64,000 nt of DNA from a virus: positions 43,395-107,394 of IMG/VR virus record IMGVR_UViG_3300042865_000182; one strand, written 5' to 3'. The notes under the pieces were generated by a model. It was not told the DNA's origin. It saw only the letters and a list, made by a program, of their open reading frames with translations, and ran no database searches. Below, in pieces: positions 1 through 63,248 of this stretch. Positions within the stretch are counted from its first letter, which is position 1; every line of letters starts with the position of its first letter. A program made the position numbers and the translations under genes.

Positions 1-2
1 AT

Positions 3-4927: not shown

Positions 4928-4947
4928 TTTAAAATTTAGTATATTTA
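4903..4947 (+). promoter_or_regulatory. Putative late promoter: palindrome TAAACTT-AAA-AAGTTTA, N20, TATATTTA
   Basis: Same architecture and spacing as 11076..11120. TAnnTTTA resembles the Bacteroidota -7 box TAnnTTTG. Confidence 0.5.
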
Positions 4948-4962
4948 ATTATAAGCAATAGC

Positions 4963-22195: not shown

Positions 22196-25100
22196 ATGAA
22201 AATTACTTGTGCCTTAAGCCAGAGTCAATCTGAAAAATTATATAAAACCATATACAAATCTTTAACTGAAGCACTAAAAGCTGAAAAACCATTCAGTGCT
22301 CAAGAGTATATGGCTAATCTTTTTGACAAGATTGCAGATAAAAAAGATGAAGATACCGCAGTTAAATTCTTGCAACAAGTCCCATCTATCATAAGAACAA
22401 TAGCTGCCAAACCAGCTTTTGATAGCTTAGATATAAAGCTAGATCCTATCAAAGAGTTGAGTCTTAAGTTTAAAGATGAGACTGAAGGTTTTAATGAAGT
22501 ACAAAAGTATTTCAAACCACAAGTATCACAAAGAGCTAAGTTAGCTTTAATAAGAGCTAACCAGAATAATGCATTGCTTGCAGAACAAGTAGACCCACCA
22601 ACTGAAGTAAAAGATCCGGTGAGACTTAGACCTTTTAGTTCTAATGTGTCTACTATGCAGTTATTAATACCAATTAATCCTAAGGATAAAGACAAGCTTC
22701 TTAAAGAAGAAAATGACCCGGCTAAAAAAAGAATATTTTCTGCAATAGAGACAATCAAGAAAGAAGCTGTATTAAGTGACTCAACTGATGTATTATCACC
22801 TATATCTTTTCAAGGTAAGACATTAAAGTTAAAACCAATTCTATTAACAGAGTTAAGAGAAACACATGAGAATCAAATAGATAAAACTACTTTGTCTGAA
22901 GTTATAAGAGCTGGTGCTATTAAATCACAAGGAACAAATAAAGAAGGTGTTGAAGGATTAAACAGAATAGCACTTGTTATTACAGATGAAAGTGGTAACT
23001 ATCTATACTTCAATGAAGAAGGTGAAATGGTTACTGAAGAAGAAGGTGGTGGTATTGTATATCAATTTATGCGGGATGTAAGAACTGATAATGGTGTATA
23101 CAGATTAACCAATATGTATGGTTCTGAAACTAGTGTTAAGACCCCTGCAGATATTGCAGAACAAATGGGTATCACAGAAGAAGCAGCTAGAAAATTACAA
23201 CAAGAAGAGTTCAAAGACTTATATAAAGTTAAAGAAGCTACATTAAAAGGTAACGGCCCGTTGTTATATTTAACTGGTTTGACTCCAGGAGTAAAACAAA
23301 GTGCTACTCAAAAAAATATTACACTACAGAATTTAAGAAGTCTTCCTTTTGTAACTAATGCAACTTTTAAAACCATAACTCCAAAAATGATTTATGGCAC
23401 TAAAGAAATTGCAACAATTACATTAAATGGACAAGAGTATAATTTAGATAGACCTAACTTACCTATTGAGTTTGCTAATGGTGAAAGACAACCGAGCCAA
23501 TTAATTAGAAAAATTGCAGCAGCATTAGCAAATCCAAACATATCAAATCAAGAAAAATATGAGTATGTGTCACAATTTTTATCTGATAAAGCATCAGAAT
23601 ATACAAGAAGACACACACTAAGTTATGATGAAGCTACTGATACTTTAGTTTTTGGGTATAATGAGAAAACATATAAAGAGGGTAGTGGACAGAAATTATC
23701 TTTTATAAATGAAGAACTAACAGGTAAAGAAAGCATAATAGAAGATGTTCTACTTAATGCTGCTTCAGATGATAGAGGTAACATGTATAGTGCTAAAATG
23801 ACTTATAATGCAAAAGCACTAAATGATAACCGCTACCGGGATTATGACATGGAGACTAATACTATTAGTGATGAGTTTACTCCTTACATACCATTCTTAG
23901 AAACATTACCAAATTCAAAGGTAAAAATTAGTGAAGAGAATGCTCCAGAGTTTTATAACTCACATATAAACTTCAGCATACCAGATGAGTTTACAAAAGA
24001 AATAGAAGCAGATTTTAAAAATCCAGATCCTATTAATGTTTCAGAAACTCCAGTAGAACCTTTTGAAGACATACAAGCTAAAATAGCTGAAATAGAAACA
24101 TTAGAAAAAGAAAAACAAGAACTTTTAAAAACTCAAAAAACTTATAAAGATTTACTCAATCAAAAATGGCCAATATCAAAATACTTAAAAAAACCAGTAG
24201 ATGGTAAATTTGATGTAGTTTCTGCTACTACTACTTCAGATTTTAATTTTAAGTTTAAAGAATATGGAAAAGATTACTTTTTTGAGATTGCTTCTGCTGG
24301 CTTAAATGCTTTTGAATATAAAGTCATAAGTGATAAAATCTCACAAACTACAGCTTTAAGTAATATTGATGAGATTATAAAACCAGTAACTACTGAATTA
24401 AATAGTCCAAAAGATGGTGATAATATAGTAACCATTAAACCAGGTGTTTTAAAAAAAGAAGGTAATGAATATATTGTTGTAACACCTGCTGAAGTTTTAT
24501 ATGTAAAATCTGAAGAATTAAATGAGCCTGTTGAAAAGGTTGATACAACAGAAATAGATTCTAGAATTGCTAAAGCTAAACAAGAACTAGCTGCTTTAGA
24601 ACAACCTGTTGGTGATAAACAAGCTCAGATAGATGAGATAGAAAAAAGGAGAGAAAAAGCATTATTTACTCCTTGGGTATTACAAAAAAATACAACAGAT
24701 GTTGTTATATTAAATAAAAGAGAAAGAGGTAAACAGATTATTGATGCGGCAGTTAAGTCTGGTAATTCTAATCTTATTTTAAAATTAATTGACTTAACAT
24801 CAGAAGGTAGAAGTGCAGAAACAATCTCAAAGGAAACTGGTTTTAATGAAGATCAGGTAAGGGAAATAAGAGAATATTTAGGAGCTTTAACACCAGGAGG
24901 TTTTGGTATAAGTGGTGCAGAAACTGAAAATGAACAAGAAGATCTTGAAAGATTTAATGCTTGGAAACAAAGTATAAAAGAGATCAATGCTAAAGCTAAA
25001 GAAGAACTAGATGCTTTAGAGCAAGCTCCTGTAGAACAAAAATGGGAATGGCCTCCAATTACACAGGATGATTCAATAAACAATGCAACAGCACCAGATA

Positions 25101-28100
25101 ATACAACTGATCCTACTGATGACTTCAGTGATTTTATGTTTAGAAAAGGAGCAGATCTAAATGGAGTTACAGAAGAACAAATAAAAGCTGCTGAAGAATG
25201 GTGGAATAGCTCTCCACTGTCTAAATACTTAGATTTTAAAACTATGGTAAACATAGTTAACTCTGATGTATATGCTAGATTTATAGGTTATGCTTCTGTT
25301 CTTAATGGTAAATATGGTGGTATTGAAATAAGTAGAACTGGTAGTATGGTTGATGTTTACCATGAAGCATGGCATGCATTCTCCCAAATATTTTTGACTA
25401 AAGAACAAAGAGAAAAACTGTATAAAGAGATTGCTAAACAGCCGGGAACATTTACCTTACTAGACGGTACTACAGTAGCTTTTAAAGATGCAAATTATTT
25501 GCAACTAGAAGAGTATTTAGCAGAAGACTTTAGATCTTATGGTATTGATCAATCAACTAAAAAAGGTCAACCTACAAGAAACACTTTGTTTAGAAAAATA
25601 TTAAACTTTATTAGAGACTTATTCTCTTCAAGAAGCACTAAAGATAGATTGTTTAAAGAACTATACTTTGCAAAAAGTAATCCTAAGTTCTTAAAAAAAT
25701 ACTCTCCAAATATAGACACTACATCTTTTAAACAACTTAACAGAGGTGTAGTAAGTTTAACAGACCCAACTATAGATGCTCTTAATAGACAAGATGCTGA
25801 GCTTATAAGCAATAGTATTGATTCATATATATCTGAGATTATTGATGCTGCAGCAAATGCAAGAGGTAATAAAAGTGGTAGTATCTCTATGTTACTTGGA
25901 GATAAAAATAAACAAGCTTTCTATACAAGAGTAAGAAAAGACTTTGAAACTAAGTTAGCTAATGCAAGGACAAGTTATGAAGCAATTCAGAATGATCCAG
26001 AGAAAGCTATGGATGCTGCAAAACTGCTTAATAAAATAAGAATATTTCAAGCAGCTTTAGATAATTTTGGTGATGCAAAAGGCGGTCTTGTAAAATATCA
26101 TTTAGAAAATACTACATTTAATTTATTAAGACAAAAGTATATTGAAGTTGAAGAAGAAGTTGAAACTGAGACTCCGGTAGAAAACAATGTAGAAGATTCT
26201 ATTAGTCAAACTTCTACACCAGAAGAATCTCAACCTGAATCAGTAATAAAAGACAGTAAGATTGGTAAAAAGTCTTTACTTGATTTAGCTAGCAAAGAAA
26301 CAGTTTACATACTTAAGAGTTTGCATAAACTTGAAAATGGTAAACCTGTTTATAATGAGTTAGGTTATAAAGAACTTGCAAACTTTACTCAGTCTTGGAA
26401 TAATTTAATGCGTGCTGTTAATGGTGAAAAGAATCCAGAGAAAATTTATGAGAATATAAAACAAGCTGGTCTTGAGGTATATCCTGAATTTAAACAGTTA
26501 TTAAACAGCAAGTTACCAAAACCATCTGAAATTATTAAAGCAGATAATGTTAATGATAAAATTTCTCAAAATAAATTATTGACTAACTTCTGGCAAGATG
26601 TACAAAAAACAAGAGTTACATATTTGCAAACTACAATATTTGAGAATGGTATAGCTGAAGTTACTAAAGCTTCAATTGAAACTGCAAGTCTTGCAAATAA
26701 GTTTGAGGCTAAGTTTAAAGGAGATCTAACAAATGATTATGTTGTAAGATCAACTGAAAACAATATACCAATGCTTAACATGGATAAGATTGTTGAAGAC
26801 TTTGGTAAAGATGGTGTTTTAATAACTGATAAATCATTTCAGTTTGCAAGAGCTATAGGCTTATATCTTGATGATTTAAGAATGATCAAGAATGAACTTA
26901 AAAAAGACCAAAGATCAATCCAGGAGTATGGTCTTCCATATATTTATAAAACAATAAGTGATATAAATAAGGCAAGCAAAAAACAAAACTTAAGTTCAGA
27001 AGGTATAGAAGCTATCACAGCCTTTAGACTAAATCCTATAAGGGAACTAATGAAAGGTATTCCGGAATCTGTTCTTGGTAAAGAAGTTTCTCAAAAAAAT
27101 AAGATAGATAAAATACTAGGTTTACAAGCTAAGTATGGTGTTGACTCTTCAAACTTTGCAGTATTAAATGCAGAAAGAAATCTTGTGTTTGAGCATATTG
27201 AAGATCACTCAGTAAGTATGATTGTATTTGCTTTGAACAAAGCAACAAATATGAAAGAGTTGTGGACTGAGGGTAGTGAGTTTGAATACTTAAGCTATCT
27301 GAATCCTAAAATTAATTCATTTACTAATAGATCACAGACTATAAATTCTCTTTTTGATATTGCATCAGACATGGAAAAAAGAGTTGGCAGATCATTGCAG
27401 TTGTTTGTAAACTCTGGTACTCAGTTAGAAAATGGTGATGGAACTAACACAACTTCATTAGACGCTCATGGTAAGTTCTTGCAAGAGCTACACAGCATGC
27501 TTAAAGGTGGTGTACAAGAATTTATGAGACATGCCTCTAAGTCTTCATCATTTGGAGCTAGAGTAGAAGGTGGTGTTATAGGTGGTGTTGGTAAAGGTTC
27601 TGATACTAGACTTTGGGTTGACTTAGATAAGTTTGCATTAGGAACAGCAAACAACTATCTTACTAAAACTCATATGATACCTTATATAGCTGCAGAGCTA
27701 GAAAGAATCAATAAGTTTAAAAGTAATAAAGATCTGTTTAAAAAGTATGCTGGGTATAACAGACCTATGCCTGATGGTACTATGGCCGGTGAAAACTTTA
27801 CAGCATTTGATAATGTACTCACTAAAGAAACAAAGGATGAGATACTTGAGAAAGTAACTGATCCTAATATGAGATTAGAAGACTATCTTAAAACAGATCC
27901 TGAACTTGCAAAGAAAATAGCAAATGATGTAGATGCTTATTTTGAATTTCAAACAAATGATCTTTTAGACTTTTATGAGGAAGCTGAATACATGAGCCCA
28001 GATCTTTTAGAAAGATTAAGATTGTTTAATTTATCGGAAGATGAAGCTACCAAAGTATTAATGAAAGCTTATGCAGTAAATGCATGGGTGCATAATTTTG

Positions 28101-31100
28101 AAATGGGTAATTTATTTTATGGAGATTTGGTTCAGTATAATCATGAGAAAGAAGAACTTCATAAAAGAAATACAGGGTCAACTTCTGGCGGTTTAAAATT
28201 CAGAACAGATGCTGCTATAAAAGCACTACTTACTGATATAAATAGTAAGGTGTCATATGCTGCTACATTACCTGGTATGGAAACACTTACATACACTGGT
28301 AAATTTAATACTGCAATTCTTCAGGATATAGAAAGAAACTCTGTATATGTTAAGCAAATAGAAGAAGCTTTAAGAAAAGACTATGAAGAAAGATTTGCTA
28401 ACAGCAAAATGCCTAAAGATAAAATACAAGCAGAAATTGATAGAAGAGTTCAAAAAGAAGTTGCCAAGTATAAGGGAATGGAGGAAGGAGATGGACAAGG
28501 TTGGATTACTTTTGATGCATATAGGTCACTTAAAATGGCATCAGGTCAATGGAGTGATGTACAAGAAGAGCTTTTCAAAAAAGTAATAAATAATGAGCCT
28601 GTAAAAGCATCAGATATTGTAGAGATGTTTCCTGCATATAAGCTTCAAAACTATGGTCACTTAGCAGATACAGCTTTACCAGTAATGGCTATGCATAAAT
28701 TTGCATTAGCTCCTATGATACCAACAATGATAAAAGGATCTGACTTGGAAAATCTTCACATGCAAATGATGAAGAATAATATACAGTATGTTACATTCCA
28801 AACAGGTTCTAAAGTAGGTAGTGTTACTTCAGAAGTTAATAGTAAAGGTAAAGCAGTTGCTGATAAAATTTATGCAGATGAAGGACAAAAGTCTTTATTA
28901 AGCAGTATTAAGTTTACTCCTAATACTATATATCTTGAGTATCTTAAAGATGTAACTCAAGTTCCGACATCTTTCAAAGGTAAAACAGTATTTGCAACTC
29001 AGTTAAGAAAGCTTATTCTAAGCAACCTATATGACCGTGGAATTCTAGATAAACATTCAGGTCTAGTAAAAGACTATGAAAATACAGTAGATGAATATGG
29101 TAATCTACTAAAAATGGAGTTACTCAATGATATAGGCTATGAATATAAAGATGGCAAATACATTGGTAACTTTACTGAATTTTTAAAAGTTATACAAGCT
29201 GAATTAAATAGAAGGGATCTACCTGAACATCATGTTGAGTTTGTTAATGCAAATCCAGATAACTCATTAAAGACAGATTTATCCTTACATCTTAAATCAG
29301 ATGATATAGAAAAGATTCTTGTAGCTTTAATGGAGAAAAGACTTGTTAGACAAAAGATTAAAGGTGAAGCTTTAGTTCAAGTATCTAGTGCTATGACCAA
29401 TGGGTTATGGGACAATCAAGTTAAGTTTGATAAAGCAAATGAAGATGAGGTAAGAAAATTCATGGGTAGTAATAACTTACCTTTTTACAATCCTACAGCA
29501 GATGGTACATCAGCAATGAAAGTTGCTATTGCTTTACAAGGTGATTTTGTAAACTTATTAAATGCAAAACATAATGATGGTGAACCAATAGGTACAAGAG
29601 AGAGACTTAATGAGATGATTAAGGATGATAAATGGATGGCAGAAAATGGTAAATCTGTTAGTTTATCAGCTGTAAGGATTCCAGTACAAGGTCTTAACTC
29701 TATGGAGTACATGCAAGTGTGGGAGTTCCTAGATCCAGCAGCAGGTAATATTATCATACCTCCATCTGAGATTGTAGCTAAATCTGGAGCTGACTTTGAC
29801 GTTGATAAACTTACTACATTTATGCCAGCTATTTCTAAAGATGGTAAGTTTATAGAATCTGAGCTTGATAATGAAGCTATCAAAAGATTGATATCAGATA
29901 ATAAAGAAACTCCTGAAGGGAAAGCTATGATATCAAGAGTTATAAGTCAACAAAAAGCAGCTCTTGAGAATAAGCTAATCACAAGCATAAATAATATTCT
30001 TAGACTTCCAGAAAACTATGCGGCATTAGTAAGACCAAATGATACTTACTTACTTAAGGATGATGTAGCTGATGTACTTGAAGATAAAGTTACAGACTAC
30101 AACAGATTTAATAATTATCATGGTGAGCCTCAAAGACCGGGAGCAAAAGCAAAAAGATCTATAAGTCCAACAAGAACTTTAGAACCATTGTATAATTTAC
30201 ATAAGCATGATGCAAACATGATTGGTAAAGCTGTTCTTGGTCTTGTTGCTATTTATAATGCATTACATCCAATATATAATTCACTTGATGCTAAAATGCC
30301 AAAACAGTATTTAGATACTTATTATGATAAAGGTTTAGGTAAATATGTAGAAGGAAAGAATCCAATATCCTCAAGAATGTTTATGCCTCATAATAAAACT
30401 GCAGAAGGTAACATATCTTTATCTGATATTTATACTGCAGATGGTGTAGACTTAATTTCAGATTTATACTCTCAGTTGATTAATGGTGCTGTGGATGTTG
30501 AAAAAGATGCATGGATCTTCTTTATTCAAGGTAACATGGAGTTAGCTCCTATGCTTTTGACAATGTTTAAGGCCGGAGTTCCAAGAGAATATGCAATCAA
30601 GTTCTTATCACAACCAATGATTAGAGAATATGCTAAAGAGTTAAGACTACTTGGTGGCTCATATGCAGATCTTGTTGCAGATCCACTTGAGGATACTAAA
30701 ACAGGTAAAAATAAAAGAGCTGCAATCAGTGTATTAGAAAGATTTGGTGTTATAAATGCACCATCTTATCTAAAATCAGATCTTAAAACTCATATGGCAT
30801 TATCTGCACTTACAAAAAAATCTGGTGTTTTAAATGAAGAGGGTCAATTTGATGTGGCTTTATTAGATAAAATGTTAGAAGAAGATGTGAGTACTGATAC
30901 ATATAAAAATCAACAGCTTGCTGTATTTTTACATTTTCTTGAAATGCAGAATCAGTTCTCTGGCTTCCAAGATTTATTAAGACTTTCAAATCCAGACACT
31001 ACAACTTCTAAGACTACACAAGAGATATTACTAAGAAAGACTTTGCTTAATGATATAATGAAGAACTCTAAAGTAGATCCTTCACTAGTTTCAAAACTTA

Positions 31101-32443
31101 CAAATGAGTCTATTCTTGGGACATTTTATGATAATGAAATTATAACACAGTTGATAGAACCATTATTCCCACTAAAGAATAATCCAACTGTAACTAAAGC
31201 TATCATAACATTATTAACTAAGAAAGCTTCAGAAGTAAAAAATATATTTGGTTATGGGGATGACGGTAAAAGAATGTTTATTAGTCAATATAAAAATGGA
31301 TTAGTAAATTATCTTTTCCAGAATGCCATGTATAATTATACTAGGTCTGATAATAATTTATTAGATATTCCATCAGAGCTTATTGATAAATACTTTACTG
31401 GTGATGTCTTCTTCCAAAACTTAGATTACTCTTTTGCTGATGATATTCTTACTCTTATAGAACAGAACCCAAGCTTAAAAGAAAAATATAATATACTGTA
31501 TCAATTAGCTAAACCAGAATTAAAAGAGGGTCAACAGATACTTACATTGAATGACAATAAGCTTTTAAAGAGTGGTGCATTGGCTGAAAGCTATTATACT
31601 AACTTGAAAGAACTTGCGGATCCCAATGTTAAAAAATCATCTGATCCAGAAAAGAATCTTTACATAAGCAATATGTTCAAGCTGCTTCCATTGATGGCAA
31701 TATATCAGAATGGAGTAGGCTTTAGTAAGTATGGGTTTAATGAAGCATTACCATTTGATGACTTCTTAGCTATAATGCAACCAGTCTCTGCAGACTTTAT
31801 AGATAACAAGAATAAAAACACTGAGTTATTAAATGTATTCAATGGTATAAAAGAACCTAAGAATAGATTCTTCAGAAACTTTGTACAAATAAGACCAGAA
31901 GATGTAGTGATAAGAACTGAAGCTCCAATACAAACTCCAGGAAAAACAATAACTTATACACCAAAAGGACAGAAAACTCAGACTTATACAATCAGAGGAA
32001 ATCAAATCTTTAATAGTGCTGAGTTAGAAGTATTTAAAGGAGATAGTGTAGATAGAAACAAAATCTTTGCAAATCTTGCAGTATCTGAAGGCCGAGCAGT
32101 TGTTGTAGAGCACAACGGATCTAAATATGTGGTGAACAATAGAAATCAAATTATATCTGGAGACACTGGTAAAATGATGCAATGGCCAGAAAACAATGGT
32201 GATAGAGTTGCAATACTTAAAAAAGCTGAAGCTAAATTTAAACCAACTGAATTAGATGTTACAAGTGATACTGTTAAAGAAGCAGAAGAAACACCAACAC
32301 CTGCTGCATCTAACATAAATGCAAGAACTTTTGTATTAAATAGTACAGAATTCCAGTCTTGGATTAAGGGTGAATTATCAAAAAACCCTAACTTAGATGT
32401 CAATAAAGCATTAGATTATTATATTAAATGTAAAGGGTTATGA
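22196..32443 (+). CDS. Virion-packaged two-barrel DNA-dependent RNA polymerase with N-terminal zincin domain
   Basis: 3415 aa. Catalytic GADFDVDK (29792..29806) preceded by RIPVQG, plus DGQGWI and AVDVEKD blocks as in crAss-like/phi14:2 gp66-type RNAP. HEAWH (25361..25375) with downstream EEYLAE. Confidence 0.9.
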   Translation: MKITCALSQSQSEKLYKTIYKSLTEALKAEKPFSAQEYMANLFDKIADKKDEDTAVKFLQQVPSIIRTIAAKPAFDSLDIKLDPIKELSLKFKDETEGFNEVQKYFKPQVSQRAKLALIRANQNNALLAEQVDPPTEVKDPVRLRPFSSNVSTMQLLIPINPKDKDKLLKEENDPAKKRIFSAIETIKKEAVLSDSTDVLSPISFQGKTLKLKPILLTELRETHENQIDKTTLSEVIRAGAIKSQGTNKEGVEGLNRIALVITDESGNYLYFNEEGEMVTEEEGGGIVYQFMRDVRTDNGVYRLTNMYGSETSVKTPADIAEQMGITEEAARKLQQEEFKDLYKVKEATLKGNGPLLYLTGLTPGVKQSATQKNITLQNLRSLPFVTNATFKTITPKMIYGTKEIATITLNGQEYNLDRPNLPIEFANGERQPSQLIRKIAAALANPNISNQEKYEYVSQFLSDKASEYTRRHTLSYDEATDTLVFGYNEKTYKEGSGQKLSFINEELTGKESIIEDVLLNAASDDRGNMYSAKMTYNAKALNDNRYRDYDMETNTISDEFTPYIPFLETLPNSKVKISEENAPEFYNSHINFSIPDEFTKEIEADFKNPDPINVSETPVEPFEDIQAKIAEIETLEKEKQELLKTQKTYKDLLNQKWPISKYLKKPVDGKFDVVSATTTSDFNFKFKEYGKDYFFEIASAGLNAFEYKVISDKISQTTALSNIDEIIKPVTTELNSPKDGDNIVTIKPGVLKKEGNEYIVVTPAEVLYVKSEELNEPVEKVDTTEIDSRIAKAKQELAALEQPVGDKQAQIDEIEKRREKALFTPWVLQKNTTDVVILNKRERGKQIIDAAVKSGNSNLILKLIDLTSEGRSAETISKETGFNEDQVREIREYLGALTPGGFGISGAETENEQEDLERFNAWKQSIKEINAKAKEELDALEQAPVEQKWEWPPITQDDSINNATAPDNTTDPTDDFSDFMFRKGADLNGVTEEQIKAAEEWWNSSPLSKYLDFKTMVNIVNSDVYARFIGYASVLNGKYGGIEISRTGSMVDVYHEAWHAFSQIFLTKEQREKLYKEIAKQPGTFTLLDGTTVAFKDANYLQLEEYLAEDFRSYGIDQSTKKGQPTRNTLFRKILNFIRDLFSSRSTKDRLFKELYFAKSNPKFLKKYSPNIDTTSFKQLNRGVVSLTDPTIDALNRQDAELISNSIDSYISEIIDAAANARGNKSGSISMLLGDKNKQAFYTRVRKDFETKLANARTSYEAIQNDPEKAMDAAKLLNKIRIFQAALDNFGDAKGGLVKYHLENTTFNLLRQKYIEVEEEVETETPVENNVEDSISQTSTPEESQPESVIKDSKIGKKSLLDLASKETVYILKSLHKLENGKPVYNELGYKELANFTQSWNNLMRAVNGEKNPEKIYENIKQAGLEVYPEFKQLLNSKLPKPSEIIKADNVNDKISQNKLLTNFWQDVQKTRVTYLQTTIFENGIAEVTKASIETASLANKFEAKFKGDLTNDYVVRSTENNIPMLNMDKIVEDFGKDGVLITDKSFQFARAIGLYLDDLRMIKNELKKDQRSIQEYGLPYIYKTISDINKASKKQNLSSEGIEAITAFRLNPIRELMKGIPESVLGKEVSQKNKIDKILGLQAKYGVDSSNFAVLNAERNLVFEHIEDHSVSMIVFALNKATNMKELWTEGSEFEYLSYLNPKINSFTNRSQTINSLFDIASDMEKRVGRSLQLFVNSGTQLENGDGTNTTSLDAHGKFLQELHSMLKGGVQEFMRHASKSSSFGARVEGGVIGGVGKGSDTRLWVDLDKFALGTANNYLTKTHMIPYIAAELERINKFKSNKDLFKKYAGYNRPMPDGTMAGENFTAFDNVLTKETKDEILEKVTDPNMRLEDYLKTDPELAKKIANDVDAYFEFQTNDLLDFYEEAEYMSPDLLERLRLFNLSEDEATKVLMKAYAVNAWVHNFEMGNLFYGDLVQYNHEKEELHKRNTGSTSGGLKFRTDAAIKALLTDINSKVSYAATLPGMETLTYTGKFNTAILQDIERNSVYVKQIEEALRKDYEERFANSKMPKDKIQAEIDRRVQKEVAKYKGMEEGDGQGWITFDAYRSLKMASGQWSDVQEELFKKVINNEPVKASDIVEMFPAYKLQNYGHLADTALPVMAMHKFALAPMIPTMIKGSDLENLHMQMMKNNIQYVTFQTGSKVGSVTSEVNSKGKAVADKIYADEGQKSLLSSIKFTPNTIYLEYLKDVTQVPTSFKGKTVFATQLRKLILSNLYDRGILDKHSGLVKDYENTVDEYGNLLKMELLNDIGYEYKDGKYIGNFTEFLKVIQAELNRRDLPEHHVEFVNANPDNSLKTDLSLHLKSDDIEKILVALMEKRLVRQKIKGEALVQVSSAMTNGLWDNQVKFDKANEDEVRKFMGSNNLPFYNPTADGTSAMKVAIALQGDFVNLLNAKHNDGEPIGTRERLNEMIKDDKWMAENGKSVSLSAVRIPVQGLNSMEYMQVWEFLDPAAGNIIIPPSEIVAKSGADFDVDKLTTFMPAISKDGKFIESELDNEAIKRLISDNKETPEGKAMISRVISQQKAALENKLITSINNILRLPENYAALVRPNDTYLLKDDVADVLEDKVTDYNRFNNYHGEPQRPGAKAKRSISPTRTLEPLYNLHKHDANMIGKAVLGLVAIYNALHPIYNSLDAKMPKQYLDTYYDKGLGKYVEGKNPISSRMFMPHNKTAEGNISLSDIYTADGVDLISDLYSQLINGAVDVEKDAWIFFIQGNMELAPMLLTMFKAGVPREYAIKFLSQPMIREYAKELRLLGGSYADLVADPLEDTKTGKNKRAAISVLERFGVINAPSYLKSDLKTHMALSALTKKSGVLNEEGQFDVALLDKMLEEDVSTDTYKNQQLAVFLHFLEMQNQFSGFQDLLRLSNPDTTTSKTTQEILLRKTLLNDIMKNSKVDPSLVSKLTNESILGTFYDNEIITQLIEPLFPLKNNPTVTKAIITLLTKKASEVKNIFGYGDDGKRMFISQYKNGLVNYLFQNAMYNYTRSDNNLLDIPSELIDKYFTGDVFFQNLDYSFADDILTLIEQNPSLKEKYNILYQLAKPELKEGQQILTLNDNKLLKSGALAESYYTNLKELADPNVKKSSDPEKNLYISNMFKLLPLMAIYQNGVGFSKYGFNEALPFDDFLAIMQPVSADFIDNKNKNTELLNVFNGIKEPKNRFFRNFVQIRPEDVVIRTEAPIQTPGKTITYTPKGQKTQTYTIRGNQIFNSAELEVFKGDSVDRNKIFANLAVSEGRAVVVEHNGSKYVVNNRNQIISGDTGKMMQWPENNGDRVAILKKAEAKFKPTELDVTSDTVKEAEETPTPAASNINARTFVLNSTEFQSWIKGELSKNPNLDVNKALDYYIKCKGL

Positions 32444-41115: not shown

Positions 41116-41502
41116 TTAATCTACTTTAATAAACTTACTTAAATCTGGTCTGAAGTATCCAGGACCTTTTAATATCTTATTATCCTCTCTAAGTATAGGT
41201 TTTCCATCCTCACCTAGTTTACTCATATTACTAGCATGTATTTCATCAAATACTTCTTCTATAATATTCTGCATACCATGTTTAAGAATAGTTCCACATA
41301 AGATATATAACTGGTCTCCCAAAGCATCTGCTATTTCTACTAATGAGTTTTTGTCACATGCATCAAGGTATTCATCATTTTCTTCAGCCATTAGTTTATG
41401 TCTTAGTACTACTTCATCTGGTCCTAAATTTTGTGACCATGTTCCATTTTCTTGTCCAAAAGCTTCATGAAACTTTTTTACTTTAGTTAATTGTTTTTCC
41501 AT
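41116..41502 (-). CDS. MazG-like all-alpha NTP pyrophosphohydrolase (DR2231/dUTPase-like)
   Basis: VKKFHEAFG, EENDEY, EIADALGDQLY, EIHASNMSK and KILKGPGYFRPDL motifs. Confidence 0.85.
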   Translation of the reverse strand: MEKQLTKVKKFHEAFGQENGTWSQNLGPDEVVLRHKLMAEENDEYLDACDKNSLVEIADALGDQLYILCGTILKHGMQNIIEEVFDEIHASNMSKLGEDGKPILREDNKILKGPGYFRPDLSKFIKVD

Positions 41503-45775: not shown

Positions 45776-46789
45776 CTACAATTTAATATTACCAACTGCA
45801 AGATCAAATGGTAAGTCATATCTCTTCTGTGTATAATGCCACTGGGCTATTTGTATAACAGATTTGAAATCACCCTTCCACTTGGTCATTGTTTCTGCAG
45901 AGACTTGGAAAGGATAAACTAAATTGTATTTGTCAATCACAATAAAGGTTACTTGCACCTGCCAATCTCTAGCATCTGGTTTGTCTTTCAAGAACTTATC
46001 TGAAGCTAGAATAGTATAGATAACAGCTTGTATCCAATACTTATAGTACTCAACAGCTTCCGGGAAATCCTGAATTGACTTGCCAGTAGTTTTGAGGTCA
46101 TTGATGAATATCACCTTTGCCTCAGTATCAACTACAACATTGTCAAGAATTCCGTGAAAACCAAAAGGTAATTTGTCATGATCAACCCTAATAGGCAACT
46201 CATTATAGGTCTCAATGTGTGCGTCTTCCTCAGTTATATCTAGTGCTAATAAAGATCTTATGTCTTTATTACTCTTTAGTATCTCTACCTGTGCTCTGCA
46301 GCCATCCAAAGTAGGTTGATCAACTATTGATTTGTCTAGACTGTTCTTAAGGAATTCAAAATACTCTTTGTGGTCATCAGTAAGAATCTTGTCAAGTCTT
46401 TGCTGATCTGTTTTAAGATTTTGATAAAGATTTGCTGTGAGTAGCTGTGTGAGTATATCTTGTGAGTAGTCTTCCAAAATTAATGAATTATTTCCATATC
46501 CAAGATGTACTCTAAAAATATTATCAATAATTTTCTTTGGGTTATCACTGGGTAGTTTCCCAGGCATACTAATAAATTTATCATCATATGCTTCTGGCTC
46601 AAAGAGTAAACAGTGTAGGACGCTCCCTCCTACAAGGTGAGCATCCTTACTGTCTTCCCGCTGGTTGAGCACATAATGATTGTAAAACATAGCAGGTGAA
46701 TAAAGTAGCTTATTCAACCCACTATAGCTAAAATAAAATTTCTTCTGATAGAATTTTTCTATTTCATCAGAACCATTCAAAGTCATCAT
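45776..46789 (-). CDS. PD-(D/E)XK exonuclease (RecE/ExoVIII-like)
   Basis: FSYSGL, GSVLHCLL, E...GILDNV...INDLKTT, YKYWIQAVIY. Confidence 0.8.
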   Translation of the reverse strand: MMTLNGSDEIEKFYQKKFYFSYSGLNKLLYSPAMFYNHYVLNQREDSKDAHLVGGSVLHCLLFEPEAYDDKFISMPGKLPSDNPKKIIDNIFRVHLGYGNNSLILEDYSQDILTQLLTANLYQNLKTDQQRLDKILTDDHKEYFEFLKNSLDKSIVDQPTLDGCRAQVEILKSNKDIRSLLALDITEEDAHIETYNELPIRVDHDKLPFGFHGILDNVVVDTEAKVIFINDLKTTGKSIQDFPEAVEYYKYWIQAVIYTILASDKFLKDKPDARDWQVQVTFIVIDKYNLVYPFQVSAETMTKWKGDFKSVIQIAQWHYTQKRYDLPFDLAVGNIKL

Positions 46790-52095: not shown

Positions 52096-52521
52096 TTATT
52101 TTATCTTAAAGAAGCGGCCCAGTATATTACCATTCAAATACTCATCTTTTTCAAGAACCTCTCTCAAAAACTGATACTTAGTTTCAAAATATGTGAGTTC
52201 CATCTTGGAAAAACATATCTTGACCATATACCTTTTGATTGGTACACCAGCTTTGTGAGCTTCTTTAAGAACTGTATTACTACTATAGTAATTCTGATAA
52301 CTAGCCTTAGAAACAGTCTCATATTTCTTGTTTCTTTTATCTGTCATCTGAGCAACAGCTCTTTTACCAAACTTCTTTTTTGTAGTAGAATAAAAATTCT
52401 TCTTACCTACATACCTTACAGACTTACCATCAATAATGGCTTCCATCTCATACACAAATCCTACAGCTCCTTCAGGAATCATACTGTTAGTAAAGTCTTT
52501 ACCTTGATATATCCAACTCAT
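52096..52521 (-). CDS. GIY-YIG-like nuclease
   Basis: GFVY...YVGKK, YYSS, E..YQF, YLNGNI. Start placed at the ATGA-coupled ATG at 52521 (MSWIYQG). Confidence 0.7.
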   Translation of the reverse strand: MSWIYQGKDFTNSMIPEGAVGFVYEMEAIIDGKSVRYVGKKNFYSTTKKKFGKRAVAQMTDKRNKKYETVSKASYQNYYSSNTVLKEAHKAGVPIKRYMVKICFSKMELTYFETKYQFLREVLEKDEYLNGNILGRFFKIK

Positions 52522-52673
52522 TTGTGTCTGTATCTTTTCATGTCCCAATCTGCTACAGTGTTTACCATAGTAGCTAATATATTTGTTGCTTCTTGCATAG
52601 ATCTTGCTTCAAAACTTAATCTAGCTTTTGTTATTCTATGTCTAAAAACATAATCATACATTGGATTTTTCAT
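52518..52673 (-). CDS. Hypothetical 51-aa protein
   Basis: Manually translated MKNPMYDYVFRHRITKARLSFEARSMQEA...RYRHK. ATGA overlaps on both sides. Confidence 0.6.
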   Translation of the reverse strand: MKNPMYDYVFRHRITKARLSFEARSMQEATNILATMVNTVADWDMKRYRHK

Positions 52674-54576: not shown

Positions 54577-55392
54577 CATTATCTTCAAATTAATTTGCAA
54601 AATTAACCCCGTTTATTAAACTGCTTAACATTTCTGCTAAGATGAGACTATATCTTCTTCCTTGTTAGGAAGGCTTCCTTTTCCACTACCATTAGCTTGC
54701 AGTGTACTCCCCTTTGGGATAGTCGTTGAACCTTTTATAAATAAGTTTTCATATACTTGCTTTATCCAAAGGACCCATTCATCATATGAATAGTTCTTTT
54801 TAGCAAAATTACATTTTTGACAGCAAGGAACACAATTATTTAGCATATAACCAATATTATTGTCCTTTCTATCTATACCATTATATACAAACTCAGATGT
54901 ATCTTTAAATTTTCTTTTATGTCCTTTAAATGTATTTGCTGGAACAGCATTACAATAATGACAGTTTTGAACTACAAGTTCTTTAAATTCATCTAAATTA
55001 ATATCAAAAGTATAATTTCTAAGTAAAGCTTGCTTTTGGTAATTCATGTAAACTTGATAAAACATTGCTGTAAAAAGAGGTTTAGAACTTCTTTCAACTA
55101 TTTGTTCAATATTATAACAACCACAAGATTTACTTGCCCCAGATTTAACTGAATAACCAGTAACTTTTTTAATATTTCCACAATCACATTGGCAAATATA
55201 TCTTTTTGTAGATTTTTCCCAATGAAGCACTGTCCATCTATTAATTTTTGTTCCTGGTTCTAAACTTAATTTACTCATATTTACTTATTTATAACTTGGC
55301 TGCTGATTGTCTTCACCTTTCAGTGGTCAGAGTTCCCAGCAATTAAAAAGCTTTTTCAATCTATATTACTATAGAAAGTGGCTACTAATTTA
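54577..55392 (-). mobile_element. Group I self-splicing intron (IA2-like) carrying an HNH homing endonuclease
   Basis: 5' exon ends in U, intron ends in G. P AATTGCTGGGAA (55344-55333), Q AATCAGCAGC (55308-55299), R GTTCAACGACTA (54731-54720), S AAGATATAGTCT (54656-54645). P1 UGGU/UA pairs with UAGCCA. Confidence 0.92.
54637..55278 (-). CDS. Intron-encoded HNH homing endonuclease
   Basis: CQCDCG...SKSCGC N-domain; CHYC...GIDRKDN...NCVPCCQKCN. The C-terminus reads through the R and S elements. Confidence 0.85.
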   Translation of the reverse strand: MSKLSLEPGTKINRWTVLHWEKSTKRYICQCDCGNIKKVTGYSVKSGASKSCGCYNIEQIVERSSKPLFTAMFYQVYMNYQKQALLRNYTFDINLDEFKELVVQNCHYCNAVPANTFKGHKRKFKDTSEFVYNGIDRKDNNIGYMLNNCVPCCQKCNFAKKNYSYDEWVLWIKQVYENLFIKGSTTIPKGSTLQANGSGKGSLPNKEEDIVSS

Positions 55393-55953
55393 ACCAATAG
55401 CATCAGCATTAGCACAAATCAAAGACTTTATTTTACCAGTTAAGTCTATGTTAGCAGACATAACCATCTCACCCTTATCATCAACTACCTTGTCTTTAAT
55501 ATGACCAGATAAAATAATGTGGGGAGCTAAGGTATCAATAAAATCTAAAACTTGGAAGAATGCTTGACGGATATATAAATAACCAGCACCATTTGGTAGT
55601 GTAGTTACATTGTCTCCATCATAGTTCTTTCCCATCGGTGTCTGACGGTAAAGTTTTATTGCAAGAGGTTGTATCATATCCTCTAATGCAGTTACAGTAT
55701 CTACAGTAACATACTTATAAGGATTATCAGCTGCCTTGATAGCTTTACCAGCATCAAGCAACTCTTGCAAAGTATTAACTTTAATCTTTAGAGCTTCAAC
55801 ATAATCAGAACCACTCTCCAAATCTAGGATTAAATTGTCATCAAGACCAGCATATGCTGTTGTCTTACCAGTCTTAGGCTTGGAATAAATAATCATTCTC
55901 TTTGGATTCTGTCTTTCAGCCTTTACTTTTTTAGTTGGGAGTACTATACTCAT
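55393..55953 (-). CDS. Sak4/AAA_24-like ATPase, exon 1
   Basis: YSKPKTGKTT Walker A, LDLESG, VTVDTVT Walker B, ILSGH. Confidence 0.85.
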
Positions 55954-60455: not shown

Positions 60456-60856
60456 AACTTATTATATAAAAATGTTTCAGGACTAATTATATCTGTAGTA
60501 TAATTAATATCCTTATACTTTTCATTGTCAAGGGTCCATAATCCCATTTCTTTTATTCTTTTATCTCTTAAAGTAATTATAGAATATGCAGTAAGATAAG
60601 CATTGTCATCATCTGAACTTAGGAACATTCCCAAGAGATTCTGTTTCTCATCTTCTGTAATATATCCTGTCTTTACTAATAAGTTTAACTCAGATAGAAA
60701 AATAAATGGTCTAAAACTCCCTTTCTTAGTACCATGTGTGTACATATACCATAAGTACCCCATGTTACTATCTTCTACTTTACATACCATATGATGTTCA
60801 TGGCATATATTTTCAATAAGACTTGTAATCTTTTGGTCTTTAAAATATCTTATCAT
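60452..60856 (-). CDS. Hypothetical protein with SxDxDN motif
   Basis: 134 aa; LLGMFLSSDDDNAYLTA. Confidence 0.65.
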   Translation of the reverse strand: MIRYFKDQKITSLIENICHEHHMVCKVEDSNMGYLWYMYTHGTKKGSFRPFIFLSELNLLVKTGYITEDEKQNLLGMFLSSDDDNAYLTAYSIITLRDKRIKEMGLWTLDNEKYKDINYTTDIISPETFLYNKL

Positions 60857-61134
60857 GATCTTATAAATTTAAATATTGCTTTTAGTTTATTGTGTTCATC
60901 TATCAACCATTCTGGAGTAAATGTTTCAGCATGTTCTATAATTTGAACTCTTGTGTTAAGAGCTACATCATGGGTAAAATTTACTATCCAAACATTACTA
61001 AAATAAAGTTTAAATTCAACACTTACATTCATTTTAATAGTAATATAGCTATATTGATGATGATTATTGATAGATCTATGAAATCCATACTTCACAAGCT
61101 CTTTGCCTATTAGTTCTGTATCTCTAAGTGTCAT
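60853..61134 (-). CDS. Hypothetical protein
   Basis: 93 aa, ATGA-coupled. Confidence 0.6.
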   Translation of the reverse strand: MTLRDTELIGKELVKYGFHRSINNHHQYSYITIKMNVSVEFKLYFSNVWIVNFTHDVALNTRVQIIEHAETFTPEWLIDEHNKLKAIFKFIRS

Positions 61135-61139
61135 ACATA

Positions 61140-61574
61140 CTATTCTGATTTACTTTCTACAATTTCTATTAACTTTTCAAGACAAACAAGTTCTGCTTCT
61201 TCGTAGTTATCATATTCTTTGAGACTAAGTATAACTTCATGAGTCTTTGATAAAGGATCTTTTTTATATTCACACGTGTATCTATAATAACAAATACTAT
61301 CTGCTGTATACATTCTTTCTATCCAAGAACATAAACCATGCTTCTCTCTAAACCATCTAAATGCTTGTTGCCAAACAGGGATAGGCAATGACTCAACACT
61401 GCTATCAATAGTGCAAGCGGGATATCCGCAATGCACATTAGGTAATTGACATCCTCCGGGTTGTGCTTGGTTTTCACAAATCTTTTTAACTGCCTCGTAT
61501 CTAAAGCATGGTTCATCAAATCCAAGTTGCTTCATTCTTAAACTTAAATTATAAGGCACAAATTCTTTTTCCAT
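61140..61574 (-). CDS. Array gene: MEKEFVPY...QQAFRWFREK...YEEAE-type phage protein, 144 aa
   Basis: Start reassigned to the ATG in the junction repeat; ends SKSE. Confidence 0.75.
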   Translation of the reverse strand: MEKEFVPYNLSLRMKQLGFDEPCFRYEAVKKICENQAQPGGCQLPNVHCGYPACTIDSSVESLPIPVWQQAFRWFREKHGLCSWIERMYTADSICYYRYTCEYKKDPLSKTHEVILSLKEYDNYEEAELVCLEKLIEIVESKSE

Positions 61575-61575
61575 T

Positions 61576-61752
61576 CTATTCTGATTTAAAACAATCATAA
61601 CAAATTACTGGAAATCCTGCAGGACTCTCATCCTTTGGCATATACATCTTTTTACCTGTTGCTTGGACATATACTTCTTCTTTTGGTGCTAAGTATACAC
61701 CACATTCAGCACAGTATTCTCCATTAATCATTTTATCTGCTATTTCTCCCAT
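61576..61752 (-). CDS. Array gene: 58-aa zinc-ribbon protein
   Basis: MGEIADKMINGEYCAECG...GFPVICYDCFKSE. Confidence 0.7.
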   Translation of the reverse strand: MGEIADKMINGEYCAECGVYLAPKEEVYVQATGKKMYMPKDESPAGFPVICYDCFKSE

Positions 61753-61753
61753 T

Positions 61754-61930
61754 CTATTCTGATTTAAGGGTTTCACCAATCTTTAATAGTTTATCTTCTA
61801 TTACTTTAAGTATGCTTAAATATTCCTTTGCTTTTTGATAATTTTTTTGATGAATATTATATTTTTCATCAAAATAATTTCTTAAAAGTATTAGTTCTTG
61901 TATTGAATATTCTACTGCTGTCTGTTCCAT
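61754..61930 (-). CDS. Array gene: 58-aa MEQTAVE...TLKSE protein
   Basis: Manually translated; bounded by junction repeats; missing from the ORF track. Confidence 0.7.
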   Translation of the reverse strand: MEQTAVEYSIQELILLRNYFDEKYNIHQKNYQKAKEYLSILKVIEDKLLKIGETLKSE

Positions 61931-61931
61931 A

Positions 61932-62153
61932 CTATTCCATTGTTAGGTTACTATCAGATAAAATCTCCCGGATCTTATCCCTTAACTTTTCATAAGCCTC
62001 TCCTACTTCAGAAGGAAGTTGTTCATTATACTTAACTTCATTTCTAAGATGCTGATCTATTTCCCATATAGCAGCTCTATACTTCCACCCATCTAATGCT
62101 ACCTGAGCATCAGATGCAGCATCTTCATCTGTAAATTCAATTATTACTTTCAT
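61932..62153 (-). CDS. Array gene: 73-aa hypothetical protein
   Basis: Starts at the repeat ATG; ends GAA TAG T ATG. Confidence 0.7.
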   Translation of the reverse strand: MKVIIEFTDEDAASDAQVALDGWKYRAAIWEIDQHLRNEVKYNEQLPSEVGEAYEKLRDKIREILSDSNLTME

Positions 62154-62154
62154 T

Positions 62155-62478
62155 CTATTCTGATTTAAAGTTATTTCTATAATTATTTACTTTATCTTTA
62201 ATTTTGTCTTTATATGGTTTTGAATTGAGCCAAATTGGATTACTATCTTTTATAGGTTTTTTATATTTTTTTCCTTTTTCATATGCATTTTTTATCTGCT
62301 CTTTCTCCATTTCTAATAGTTCTGTATCAATTCTATTGAGTATGTTATCAATAGTAAGGTTAACTACTGCTTGACAAGCCTCTCTTGTCCTTAAATCTTT
62401 AATTTCTTCAAGTGCTTCATTACAAGTACTTACTGCAATTAATAAATCACTTTTTAATTCTTGCACTGCTGTTTTCAT
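62155..62478 (-). CDS. Array gene: 107-aa MKTAV...MEKEQI...FKSE protein
   Basis: Start reassigned to the repeat ATG at 62478. Confidence 0.75.
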   Translation of the reverse strand: MKTAVQELKSDLLIAVSTCNEALEEIKDLRTREACQAVVNLTIDNILNRIDTELLEMEKEQIKNAYEKGKKYKKPIKDSNPIWLNSKPYKDKIKDKVNNYRNNFKSE

Positions 62479-62479
62479 T

Positions 62480-62701
62480 CTATTCTGATTTAAAGGTTTC
62501 GTTGTAGTATAAATCTCCATGTAAAAAATCTTTGCCACAATATTTTTCTGCTGCTTCAAAGGCTTGCATTATCTGCTCTTTCTCCATTTCTTTGGCTTGT
62601 TCAATTTTATCTTTAAAATCAATATCAATATTTTTGTAGCCTAAATGTTTTTTTCTACTTGATTTTAACTCATTTACAAACCATTCTACTGCTGTTTTCA
62701 T
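62480..62701 (-). CDS. Array gene: 73-aa MKTAVEW...MEKEQI...TFKSE protein
   Basis: Bounded by two 34-bp identical repeats. Confidence 0.75.
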   Translation of the reverse strand: MKTAVEWFVNELKSSRKKHLGYKNIDIDFKDKIEQAKEMEKEQIMQAFEAAEKYCGKDFLHGDLYYNETFKSE

Positions 62702-62712
62702 TCTATTCTGAT

Positions 62713-62970
62713 TTAAAGGTTATCAAATTGTTCTTGTAACTGATCTAACTCAACAGTTACCAACTCTATTTCTTTTTCAATAGCTTCTCTCATTAAATCC
62801 ATATTCTTAAAATATAATTCCAATGGACTATTAGAAATACCAACATAAACTTCTAAGTGTACTCTACTTAAACCACAACCTTTAGCATGCTGTAACTTTC
62901 TTCTGTACTCATAAAGTTTATCATATTGATCTTTTAAGTTTTTAGCTAAATTAAATACATCATTCTTCAT
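62713..62970 (-). CDS. Hypothetical 85-aa coiled-coil protein
   Basis: Start reassigned to the ATG at 62970 (TAG-T-ATG junction). Confidence 0.6.
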   Translation of the reverse strand: MKNDVFNLAKNLKDQYDKLYEYRRKLQHAKGCGLSRVHLEVYVGISNSPLELYFKNMDLMREAIEKEIELVTVELDQLQEQFDNL

Positions 62971-62971
62971 A

Positions 62972-63052
62972 CTATTTTCTTTTACCAATTTGATAACCCA
63001 CATAGAACCATAAAACAAATCCTATGTGTGATATGATTAATATCCAAGTCAT
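62972..63052 (-). CDS. 26-aa single-TM peptide
   Basis: MTWILIISHIGFVLWFYVGYQIGKRK, flanked by AAATAGTATG junctions. Confidence 0.55.
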   Translation of the reverse strand: MTWILIISHIGFVLWFYVGYQIGKRK

Positions 63053-63053
63053 A

Positions 63054-63248
63054 CTATTTCTTTTTTTTCTGTTCTAAATAATCAATAATAAAACCAATAG
63101 CAACAATAATATTCATACCAAAAGAAGCTATTATTTCTTGAATATCCTCATAGACAGTAGACATCAAATGTACATGACCAACCATCCAGAATGGTATGGA
63201 CAAGTTTTGGCTTATCCATACCACTAGATATTTTAGAAAATGTAACAT
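63054..63248 (-). CDS. Small membrane protein
   Basis: 64 aa, two hydrophobic segments, basic tail. Confidence 0.6.
   Translation of the reverse strand: MLHFLKYLVVWISQNLSIPFWMVGHVHLMSTVYEDIQEIIASFGMNIIVAIGFIIDYLEQKKKK

Follow-up and report, generated by a model that had tools for sequence, protein, structure and literature searches.

The window analyzed here is the whole stretch of 64,000 nucleotides that forms the final 64 kb of a single 107,394-bp virus record in IMG/VR (IMGVR_UViG_3300042865_000182; GC 32.8%, CheckV completeness approximately 90%). Between positions 60853 and 63248, it contains an array of ten small genes, neighbors of which are connected by a short conserved stop/start sequence. 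This sequence, hereafter called the joint, is the subject of this study. All array genes lie on the minus strand, and positions are those of the window. A preliminary description of this DNA, made from its letters, had noticed nine AA-TAG-W-ATG junctions. Read on the minus strand, nine consecutive junctions indeed show AATAG(A/T)ATG, with the ATGs at 63052, 62970, 62701, 62478, 62153, 61930, 61752, 61574, and 61138. These nine, all within a stretch of 1.9 kb, are the only minus-strand AATAGWATG sites in the whole 107,394-bp genome.

A longer motif covers six of the junctions. The exact 19-mer TTTAAATCAGAATAGAATG is located at 61572-61590, 62151-62169, 62476-62494, and 62699-62717, and a copy with one mismatch at 61750-61768, as had been described; a further copy with three mismatches is found at 61136-61154. 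Six matches are to be compared with 0.21 expected, and this number was reached in none of 100 shuffles. Two of the copies, as also described, belong to 34-bp stretches identical to each other (62465-62498 and 62688-62721), which consist of the motif and the conserved MKTAV start of two paralogous genes.

Relatives were collected as the IMG/VR contigs (at least 119) containing the exact 19-mer and are labeled L with a number. Open reading frames (ORFs) were called and clustered in 119 of these loci together with this genome, and the cluster numbers are used below. The first gene of the array (64 aa, 63054-63248, cluster 30) is the last conserved backbone gene upstream of a variable stretch. A short joint, AATAGTATG (63050-63058), lies between this gene and a 26-aa gene, and the same short joint (62968-62976) lies between the latter and an 85-aa cassette gene (62713-62970, cluster 146). 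The 85-aa gene stops at a TAA inside TTTAAA (frame 2) of joint copy 1, the 23-mer AACCTTTAAATCAGAATAGAATG at 62699-62721, so that, as had been noticed, the upstream gene stops out of frame at the first copy. The ATG of copy 1 (62701) starts the first of two genes of what we call the AVEWL family, a canonical member of 73 aa (62480-62701, MKTAVEWF..EQAKEMEKEQI..YYNETFKSE). Copy 2, again an exact 23-mer (62476-62498), encodes the ..ETFKSE* of this gene, and its ATG (62478) starts a divergent paralogue of 107 aa (62155-62478, MKTAVQEL..EMEKEQI..NNFKSE). Copy 3 is an exact 19-mer (62151-62169, ..NNFKSE*), and its ATG (62153) starts a 73-aa cassette gene (61932-62153, cluster 8), which is present in 24 loci with many different upstream neighbors and at varying genome positions.

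The third short joint AATAGTATG (61928-61936) follows the 73-aa gene and leads to a 58-aa cassette gene (61754-61930, MEQTAVEY..ETLKSE). The latter ends in copy 4 (61750-61768, ..ETLKSE*), which reads CTTAAATC.. with one mismatch and provides the ATG at 61752. A Cys-rich cassette gene of 58 aa (61576-61752, cluster 159) ends in the exact 19-mer of copy 5 (61572-61590, ..DCFKSE*), and the ATG of this copy (61574) starts a 144-aa cassette gene (61140-61574, cluster 76) matching phrog_25117, a family of unknown function. Copy 6 (61132-61154) is degenerate, with three mismatches; it reads ..ESKSE* and then TAG TATGT ATG, and the next gene actually begins at the second of the two ATGs (61134). With this next gene (93 aa, 60853-61134, cluster 27), the conserved backbone resumes downstream of the variable stretch. 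The TATG-TATG duplication mentioned in the preliminary description is the TATGTATG that precedes it, and it is common to the relatives L070 and L010; L037 and L055 have a single TATG. The KSE C-terminus that had been assigned to five proteins is confirmed in ETFKSE, NNFKSE, ETLKSE, DCFKSE, and ESKSE. The ten array proteins have no match in Pfam, and in PHROGs they match only families of unknown function.

Origin and spread of the 23-mer

The exact 19-mer is found in at least 171 copies in the at least 119 contigs, and unselected flanking positions lengthen it to the 23-mer AACCTTTAAATCAGAATAGAATG. Copies with five or fewer mismatches to the 23-mer number 250 on the gene strand and 0 on the other strand in these loci, and an ORF of at least 25 codons begins at the ATG of the motif in 223 of the 250. 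In prokaryote genomes (596 Gb, 185,579 species genomes), the 19-mer gave nine hits, of which only two are in the proper context, one in a Chitinophagaceae metagenome-assembled genome and one in a Bacteroidota metagenome-assembled genome. The idea that the motif is an element of host genomes was rejected on these counts. Neither the motif nor the signature peptides of the AVEWL family were found in the papers covered by a literature search.

Most of the proteins encoded upstream of the motif in the KSE frame (96 of 121) come from one family of 60–85 aa, the AVEWL family, and the proteins encoded downstream fall into 65 clusters. The constant blocks of the family are MKTAVEWL, EQAKEMEKEQI, and YYNETFKSE. 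No Pfam or PHROG model matches the AVEWL protein, and the ESM Atlas gave only viral hypothetical clusters. The family was also sampled by a degenerate DNA pattern of the N-terminus, which is independent of the 3′ end. Among the 115 distinct members obtained, the tail is TFKSE in 39 and TFKQQEQ with an ATGA overlap in 11, and many other tails are present. Since members sampled by the N-terminus carry such varied tails, ETFK is what is conserved as a peptide, and SE-TAG-A-ATG is one successful joint of several. The AVEWL family is the native carrier of the motif, the 23-mer being the native 3′ end of this small early-gene family plus the ATG of the next gene.

A second joint, TTTAAACAACAAGAACAATGA, encodes ..ETFKQQEQ* with the next ATG overlapping the TGA, and is identical in DNA in all 11 distinct genes with this tail (L098, L015, and L023, for example). 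The phenomenon extends beyond one sequence, because the second joint is likewise frozen in DNA. In L026, the joint at the 3′ end of a 72-aa AVEWL gene reads TCAGAATAGAATAGAATG, in which the AATAG unit is duplicated in tandem. A direct repeat present in the motif itself, AGAAT-AGAAT, may favor slippage.

The phage that carries the array can be placed by a 3415-aa ORF at 22196-32443 on the plus strand. DFDVD occurs at residue 2533 of this ORF, and the part from residue 2000 to residue 2999 matches PDB 6VR4, the virion RNA polymerase gp66 of phi14:2 (E = 3.9e-17); a PHROG search with this ORF gave no match. A giant virion RNA polymerase that has a DFD(I/V)D motif and is related to phi14:2 gp66 is a hallmark of crAss-like phages. 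The genome is assigned to the crAss-like phages because its giant ORF with DFDVD matches this polymerase. The source is a divergent crAss-like phage, probably of freshwater Bacteroidota. Its DNA polymerase is at most 37% identical to those of known phages, and a blastn search with the array against 50,697 phage records gave no match.

The motif is carried by two unrelated backbones. Approximately 20 loci have the crAss-like backbone of this 107-kb genome, and 73 loci have a backbone of the Erf/NinG type (contigs of approximately 30–35 kb), which encodes an Erf-like annealing protein, an exonuclease, a single-stranded DNA-binding protein (SSB), a DnaD-like loader, a helicase, NinG/Rap, a ParB-methyltransferase, and a portal protein. 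The Erf/NinG-type loci share the 23-mer, the AVEWL family, and some cassette families with the crAss-like loci. Both lineages probably infect freshwater Bacteroidota.

Gene exchange at the joint

Approximately 20 loci share the backbone ..62-26-79-30-[variable]-27-22-..-32-33-46-47-60-DnaB-61-Sak4, in which the numbers are clusters, and the variable part differs in every one of them. The preliminary description had proposed that units of the array are added, deleted, or reordered. The relatives collected here agree with this: their gene content and order are not fixed, and the endpoints of the differences lie inside the repeat.

The clearest case is an indel. In L040, the 85-aa gene of cluster 146 is joined by one motif copy straight to the 73-aa gene of cluster 8, and in the window the two AVEWL genes (548 bp) are placed between these genes with the motif at each border, copy 3 being the right end of the indel. 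The L040 junction is composed of the left flank of copy 1 in the window, the motif, and the right flank of copy 3, and a three-way alignment switches partner inside the motif. The identity between L040 and the window is 80.6% to the left of the junction and 95.5% to the right. A replacement is observed in L070, which is 91.5% identical to the window through the end of the gene at 63054-63248, then has five unrelated genes, and is 98.7% identical from 61590, the first base of the 19-mer in copy 5, onward. Relocation with replacement of the tail is observed for the Cys-rich 58-aa gene. It ends with ..YDCFKSE* here, and its orthologues in L019 and L116 end with ..KDCHDE* at another place in the backbone with no motif on either side. 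The 73-aa gene at 61932-62153 is also found downstream of cluster 22 in L046.

A micro-ORF of 21 codons (MKTILEFLVLLIVSCVY..) is located between the 73-aa gene and backbone gene 27 in L037 (342-411) and L055 (937-1006, both in motif orientation). It is flanked by TAG-CT-ATG and TAG-T-ATG joints, indicating that cassettes can be very small.

Synteny breaks were counted in alignments with at least 80% identity and at least 150 nt, with the AVEWL family left out and with the other tight junctions within 3 kb as controls. At motif junctions, 86% of the homologous comparisons on the downstream side (n = 333) and 78% of those on the upstream side (n = 88) are broken, and the values for the other tight junctions are 34% and 43%, respectively. 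The broken alignments mostly take in the motif, starting at −20 to −24 or ending at +3 to +15. In total, 178 motif junctions link 60 upstream clusters to 78 downstream clusters.

Several points weigh against the interpretation that genes are exchanged by recombination at the motif. The pairwise break counts are pseudo-replicated, as the loci are related to each other. The region itself is plastic, since 34–43% of the other junctions break too; the motif is enriched at breakpoints but is not unique there. At the level of clusters, a neighbor test differs between motif and other junctions only without the AVEWL cluster (0.18 versus 0.36), and with this cluster the values are 0.34 and 0.36. Recombination at the motif is read from end products in metagenome contigs. 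Some motif-tailed genes could have arisen from illegitimate in-frame deletions into a downstream AVEWL gene and not from homologous exchange. Moreover, metagenome contigs can be chimeric, and L082 may be an example.

L082 is a 7.2-kb contig with the Erf/portal-type backbone, and its final 719 nt (6523-7242 in motif orientation) are 100% identical to this genome in the region of window 62102-62599. The identical stretch begins inside an AVEWL gene. The contig is either an assembly chimera at a conserved block of the AVEWL gene or a product of very recent exchange between the lineages. The end of L082 is what can be said for the view that the mosaicism as a whole is an artefact of metagenome assembly across repeats. 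That view is very improbable, judging from the other contigs. The relatives come from many samples, and their flanks are 70–95% identical, which means distinct genomes and not misjoined pieces of one genome. The same architectures are also found in independent contigs, such as L019 and L116, and a repeat of 19–45 bp is short in comparison with the k-mer sizes usually used by assemblers.

The breaks might also be observed if the motif were purely an expression signal, that is, a start region or translational coupling element, or a shared operator through which a translational repressor or a nuclease acts on early mRNAs, with selection at the RNA level. Gene boundaries would then be the only viable breakpoints, and the AVEWL gene would be simply a frequent neighbor. 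The breaks at 34–43% of the non-motif junctions fit this explanation, as does the equivocal neighbor test with cluster 0 included. However, in the indel cases the motif is covered by the alignments of both flanks, and the step in identity from 80.6% to 95.5% occurs across one copy, neither of which is in line with a role in expression only.

Conservation of the joint and its start region

Of the 250 copies, 155 have an upstream ORF with the ending ..KSE*, 41 have one that terminates at the TAA inside TTTAAA, and 34 have one that terminates ahead of the motif. All three groups have the same profile of mismatches. Because this profile is the same whether or not the upstream ORF reads KSE, the conservation of the motif is not at the peptide level. 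The suggestion in the preliminary description that the junction DNA is kept apart from the KSE codons thus agrees with the larger set, in which selection on the peptide only is not what is found. Counted from the A of the ATG, positions −14 to −11, −8, −6, and −3 are changed in 0–1 of the 250 copies, position −2 in 58, and position −1 in 45. The two C residues at the 5′ edge of the motif are changed in 31 and 42 copies.

This pattern resembles the start regions used by the probable hosts. Gene starts in this genome are not preceded by Shine-Dalgarno (SD) sequences (SD-like 4-mers are present at 2 of 83 starts), and the upstream profile consists of T at −15, an A-run from −14 to −10, and A at −3/−4, which is the pattern of Bacteroidota. 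In the motif, A is found at −1, −3, −5, −6, −8, −11, −12, and −13. In Flavobacterium johnsoniae, A at −3, −6, −12, and −13 raises translation, as ribosome profiling and reporters have shown (Baez et al. 2019, PMC6847099). All four of these positions are among the invariant A positions of the motif. Like the SD-less start regions of Bacteroidota (PMC6847099), the motif combines A at −3/−6/−12/−13 and an A-run in the region from −14 to −11 with no SD sequence and low structure. As single-stranded DNA, five joints fold with −1.0 to −3.7 kcal/mol and z-scores of −0.6 to +1.0 against shuffles, indicating that they are unstructured.

The strength of the motif as a start region is ordinary. With a start-site matrix made from the genome's own starts, the motif scores 3.6, and the median real start scores 3.9; the motif is within the top 2.6% of all ATGs. 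It is therefore a normal and competent start region but not an exceptional one. Since it is only average, a function as a translation initiation region leaves the conservation of C at −9, T at −10, and G at −7 unexplained, a point that counts also against our own interpretation given below. Ordinary Bacteroidota start regions, unlike this motif, are not conserved letter for letter across genes.

We consider the expression-only explanation unlikely on the whole. In its favor, the position-specific conservation fits the known Bacteroidota determinants, the distance between the motif and the ATG does not vary, and the motif is always oriented like the genes. Contrarily, the nucleotide sequence is exactly identical in two unrelated backbones and behind unrelated upstream genes in three frames, the motif scores only as an average start region, and many other tails and joints serve the AVEWL family just as well.

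Two other effects on translation were considered and rejected. TAG is the rarest stop in the long ORFs of the genome (11 of 83) and yet is used at all nine junctions. Recoding or suppression of TAG is not supported, because the genome contains no tRNA genes, translation under table 11 leaves the giant ORFs uninterrupted, and TAG does end those 11 of the 83 long ORFs. Frameshifting by −1 at the slippery-looking T_TTA_AAT is not supported either, as the heptamer is in phase only with the frame of the downstream gene itself and is unusable by the upstream ORF.

Each small early gene could also receive an mRNA of its own with a short leader, if the motif were a phage-specific promoter (one read by the virion RNA polymerase, for example) or a site of RNA processing. 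A conserved element of approximately 20 nt immediately upstream of many early genes is what would be expected in this case, the phage does encode a gp66-like virion RNA polymerase, and the early promoters of crAss-like phages are not known. This possibility is nevertheless improbable. The 23-mer has neither a −35/−10 pair of the sigma-70 type nor the Bacteroidota TAnnTTTG; promoter-like sites are not enriched (16 found versus 28 expected); and neither of the two terminator-like sites in 59–64 kb is at a joint. A promoter-like 14-mer from upstream in this genome is absent from the array. The motif is also present in the approximately 30-kb phages of the Erf/NinG type, in whose fetched loci (a search that did not extend to the whole genomes) there is no such polymerase, and early transcripts of phi14:2 have no common upstream motif. 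Furthermore, the motif overlaps coding sequence, which leaves a leader of 0–1 nt, and its most variable positions adjoin the ATG and do not form a spacer.

The upstream neighborhood of the array is arranged differently. The small, tightly packed genes upstream of the replication block form a run that crosses the contig ends. On the minus strand at genome coordinates 1-5100, a region outside the window that lies past the contig ends on the upstream side of the array, the genes are 47–260 nt apart and not abutted. Most of them have TTAAA or TTTAAA approximately 10–16 nt before the ATG (TTAAACTATATATT-ATG, for example). A look-alike, AATCAGAATAG-ATG, is found within an ORF near genome coordinate 4919.

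Known systems and a proposed portable joint

The preliminary description had proposed an integron-like platform and had stated that no integrase is present in the window. The latter can be extended to the whole 107-kb genome (90% complete by CheckV), in which searches for tyrosine and serine recombinases (PF00589 and PF00239) gave no match, with positive controls. The platform itself, in which a site-specific recombinase would act on the repeat as an attC-like site, is refuted on its defining features, and we attach almost no probability to it. Like integron attC sites, the repeat separates small, apparently promoter-less genes in the same orientation with tight junctions. However, no tyrosine or serine recombinase is encoded in the approximately 90% complete genome, and neither an attC-like hairpin nor an imperfect inverted repeat is formed at the five folded joints. 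The repeat is coding sequence, namely the 3′ end of one small-gene family, followed by an SD-less start region.

The closest known systems are the PeSLs of T4-type phages, each of which is an intergenic sigma-70-like promoter with a terminator stem-loop (Arbiol et al. 2010, PMC2839356; Comeau et al. 2014, PMC4122927). Exchange between neighboring PeSLs yields mini-circles (PMC2839356, PMC4122927). As in the present case, PeSLs are short conserved repeats between small nonessential ORFans of a hyperplastic early region, and the repeat is where insertions, deletions, and replacements that distinguish relatives have their ends. PeSLs serve expression as well, as is proposed for the joint. The joint differs from PeSLs in having no promoter or terminator. 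It takes in the stop codon of one gene and the start codon of the following one, and any action would be at the level of translation. Unlike a PeSL, it belongs to the coding sequence of a gene family.

Linkers are short conserved stretches at gene boundaries that have been proposed to guide the homologous exchange of modules between otherwise unrelated phages. Such linker or boundary sequences at gene borders were reportedly noted in mosaic lambdoid phages and mycobacteriophages by Susskind and Botstein in 1978, Clark and coworkers in 2001, and Pedulla and coworkers in 2003. The joint is similar in its placement at gene boundaries, and one of the two lineages carrying it has a lambdoid-like Erf/exo/NinG early region. 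Unlike these linkers, it is one defined 23-mer that recurs in hundreds of copies, stops two frames, and starts the third, and a crAss-like lineage and a small siphovirus-like lineage have it in common.

Candidate enzymes for recombination are located in the minus-strand replication and recombination set of the window, which comprises a family A DNA polymerase, a primase, a DnaB-like helicase, a Sak4-like AAA_24 ATPase, a PD-(D/E)XK exonuclease, and an HNH/endonuclease VII-like gene. Of the three proteins that had been proposed to recombine the repeat, the Sak4-like single-stranded DNA-annealing ATPase (55390-55953, minus strand; AAA_24, phrog_124) is a candidate recombinase, and the PD-(D/E)XK exonuclease (45776-46789, minus strand; phrog_412, PF12705) is a candidate recombination exonuclease; the third, an SSB, was not identified among the scanned ORFs of this genome. 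Single-strand-annealing recombination systems are encoded in both lineages, and systems of this kind tolerate short and diverged homology.

Other minus-strand genes in the replication block are a MazG-like nucleotide pyrophosphohydrolase (41116-41502) and an ORF at 52096-52548, whose match to phrog_447 ("NAD synthetase") is accompanied by a weaker one to a homing-endonuclease family. The HNH/endonuclease VII-like gene (54637-55278, minus strand) directly follows the Sak4-like gene. It forms a singleton cluster, its place in relatives being occupied by cluster 101 or others, and may be an insertion of a free-standing homing endonuclease.

Taken together, we regard it as probable, though by no means certain, that the motif is a portable stop/start joint, derived from the 3′ end of the AVEWL family and the start codon of the next gene, which serves both expression and, as a homology linker, gene shuffling. 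The part played in shuffling is visible in the comparison of the loci; from its end products, we infer a mechanism, and the part in expression is proposed on the basis of the sequence. As read from the motif, which has stops in two frames and the ATG in the third, the joint would end an incoming ORF in either of two frames, by the TAG after KSE or by the TAA inside TTTAAA. It would then supply the third-frame ATG in an unstructured, A-rich, SD-less start region of the Bacteroidota type. With stops in two frames and ATG in the third, any gene placed behind the joint in an apparently promoter-less early operon would therefore be translated. The same 19–45 bp recur many times per genome and across phage lineages, and thus offer short homology for recombination. 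The plausible enzymes are Sak4 and the exonuclease here, and Erf, the exonuclease, SSB, and NinG/Rap in the other lineage. Recombination of this kind would delete, insert, replace, or relocate whole small genes with their expression retained. The element is best described as a homology linker doubling as an SD-less stop/start adaptor, derived from the tail of one abundant gene family.

A more tentative extension, which we hold possible but rather doubtful, is that the 23-mer is a universal adaptor that lets crAss-like phages of approximately 107 kb and Erf/NinG phages of approximately 30 kb, both of Bacteroidota, share a pool of small early genes. This would be an exchange of cassettes at the level of translation and independent of a recombinase. 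The spread of the adaptor may have been helped by the AVEWL gene and its tail acting as a selfish or domesticated mobile unit.

Phage mosaicism has been disputed between homologous exchange at short linkers and random illegitimate joins filtered by selection. The joint makes the linker model directly testable, since it offers one defined 23-nt sequence in hundreds of copies, three reading-frame contexts, two unrelated lineages, and clear end products. It also suggests how expression can survive shuffling in hosts without SD sites. In addition, a large unannotated family of small proteins and its neighbors are flagged as an exchangeable pool of early accessory genes in crAss-like phages.

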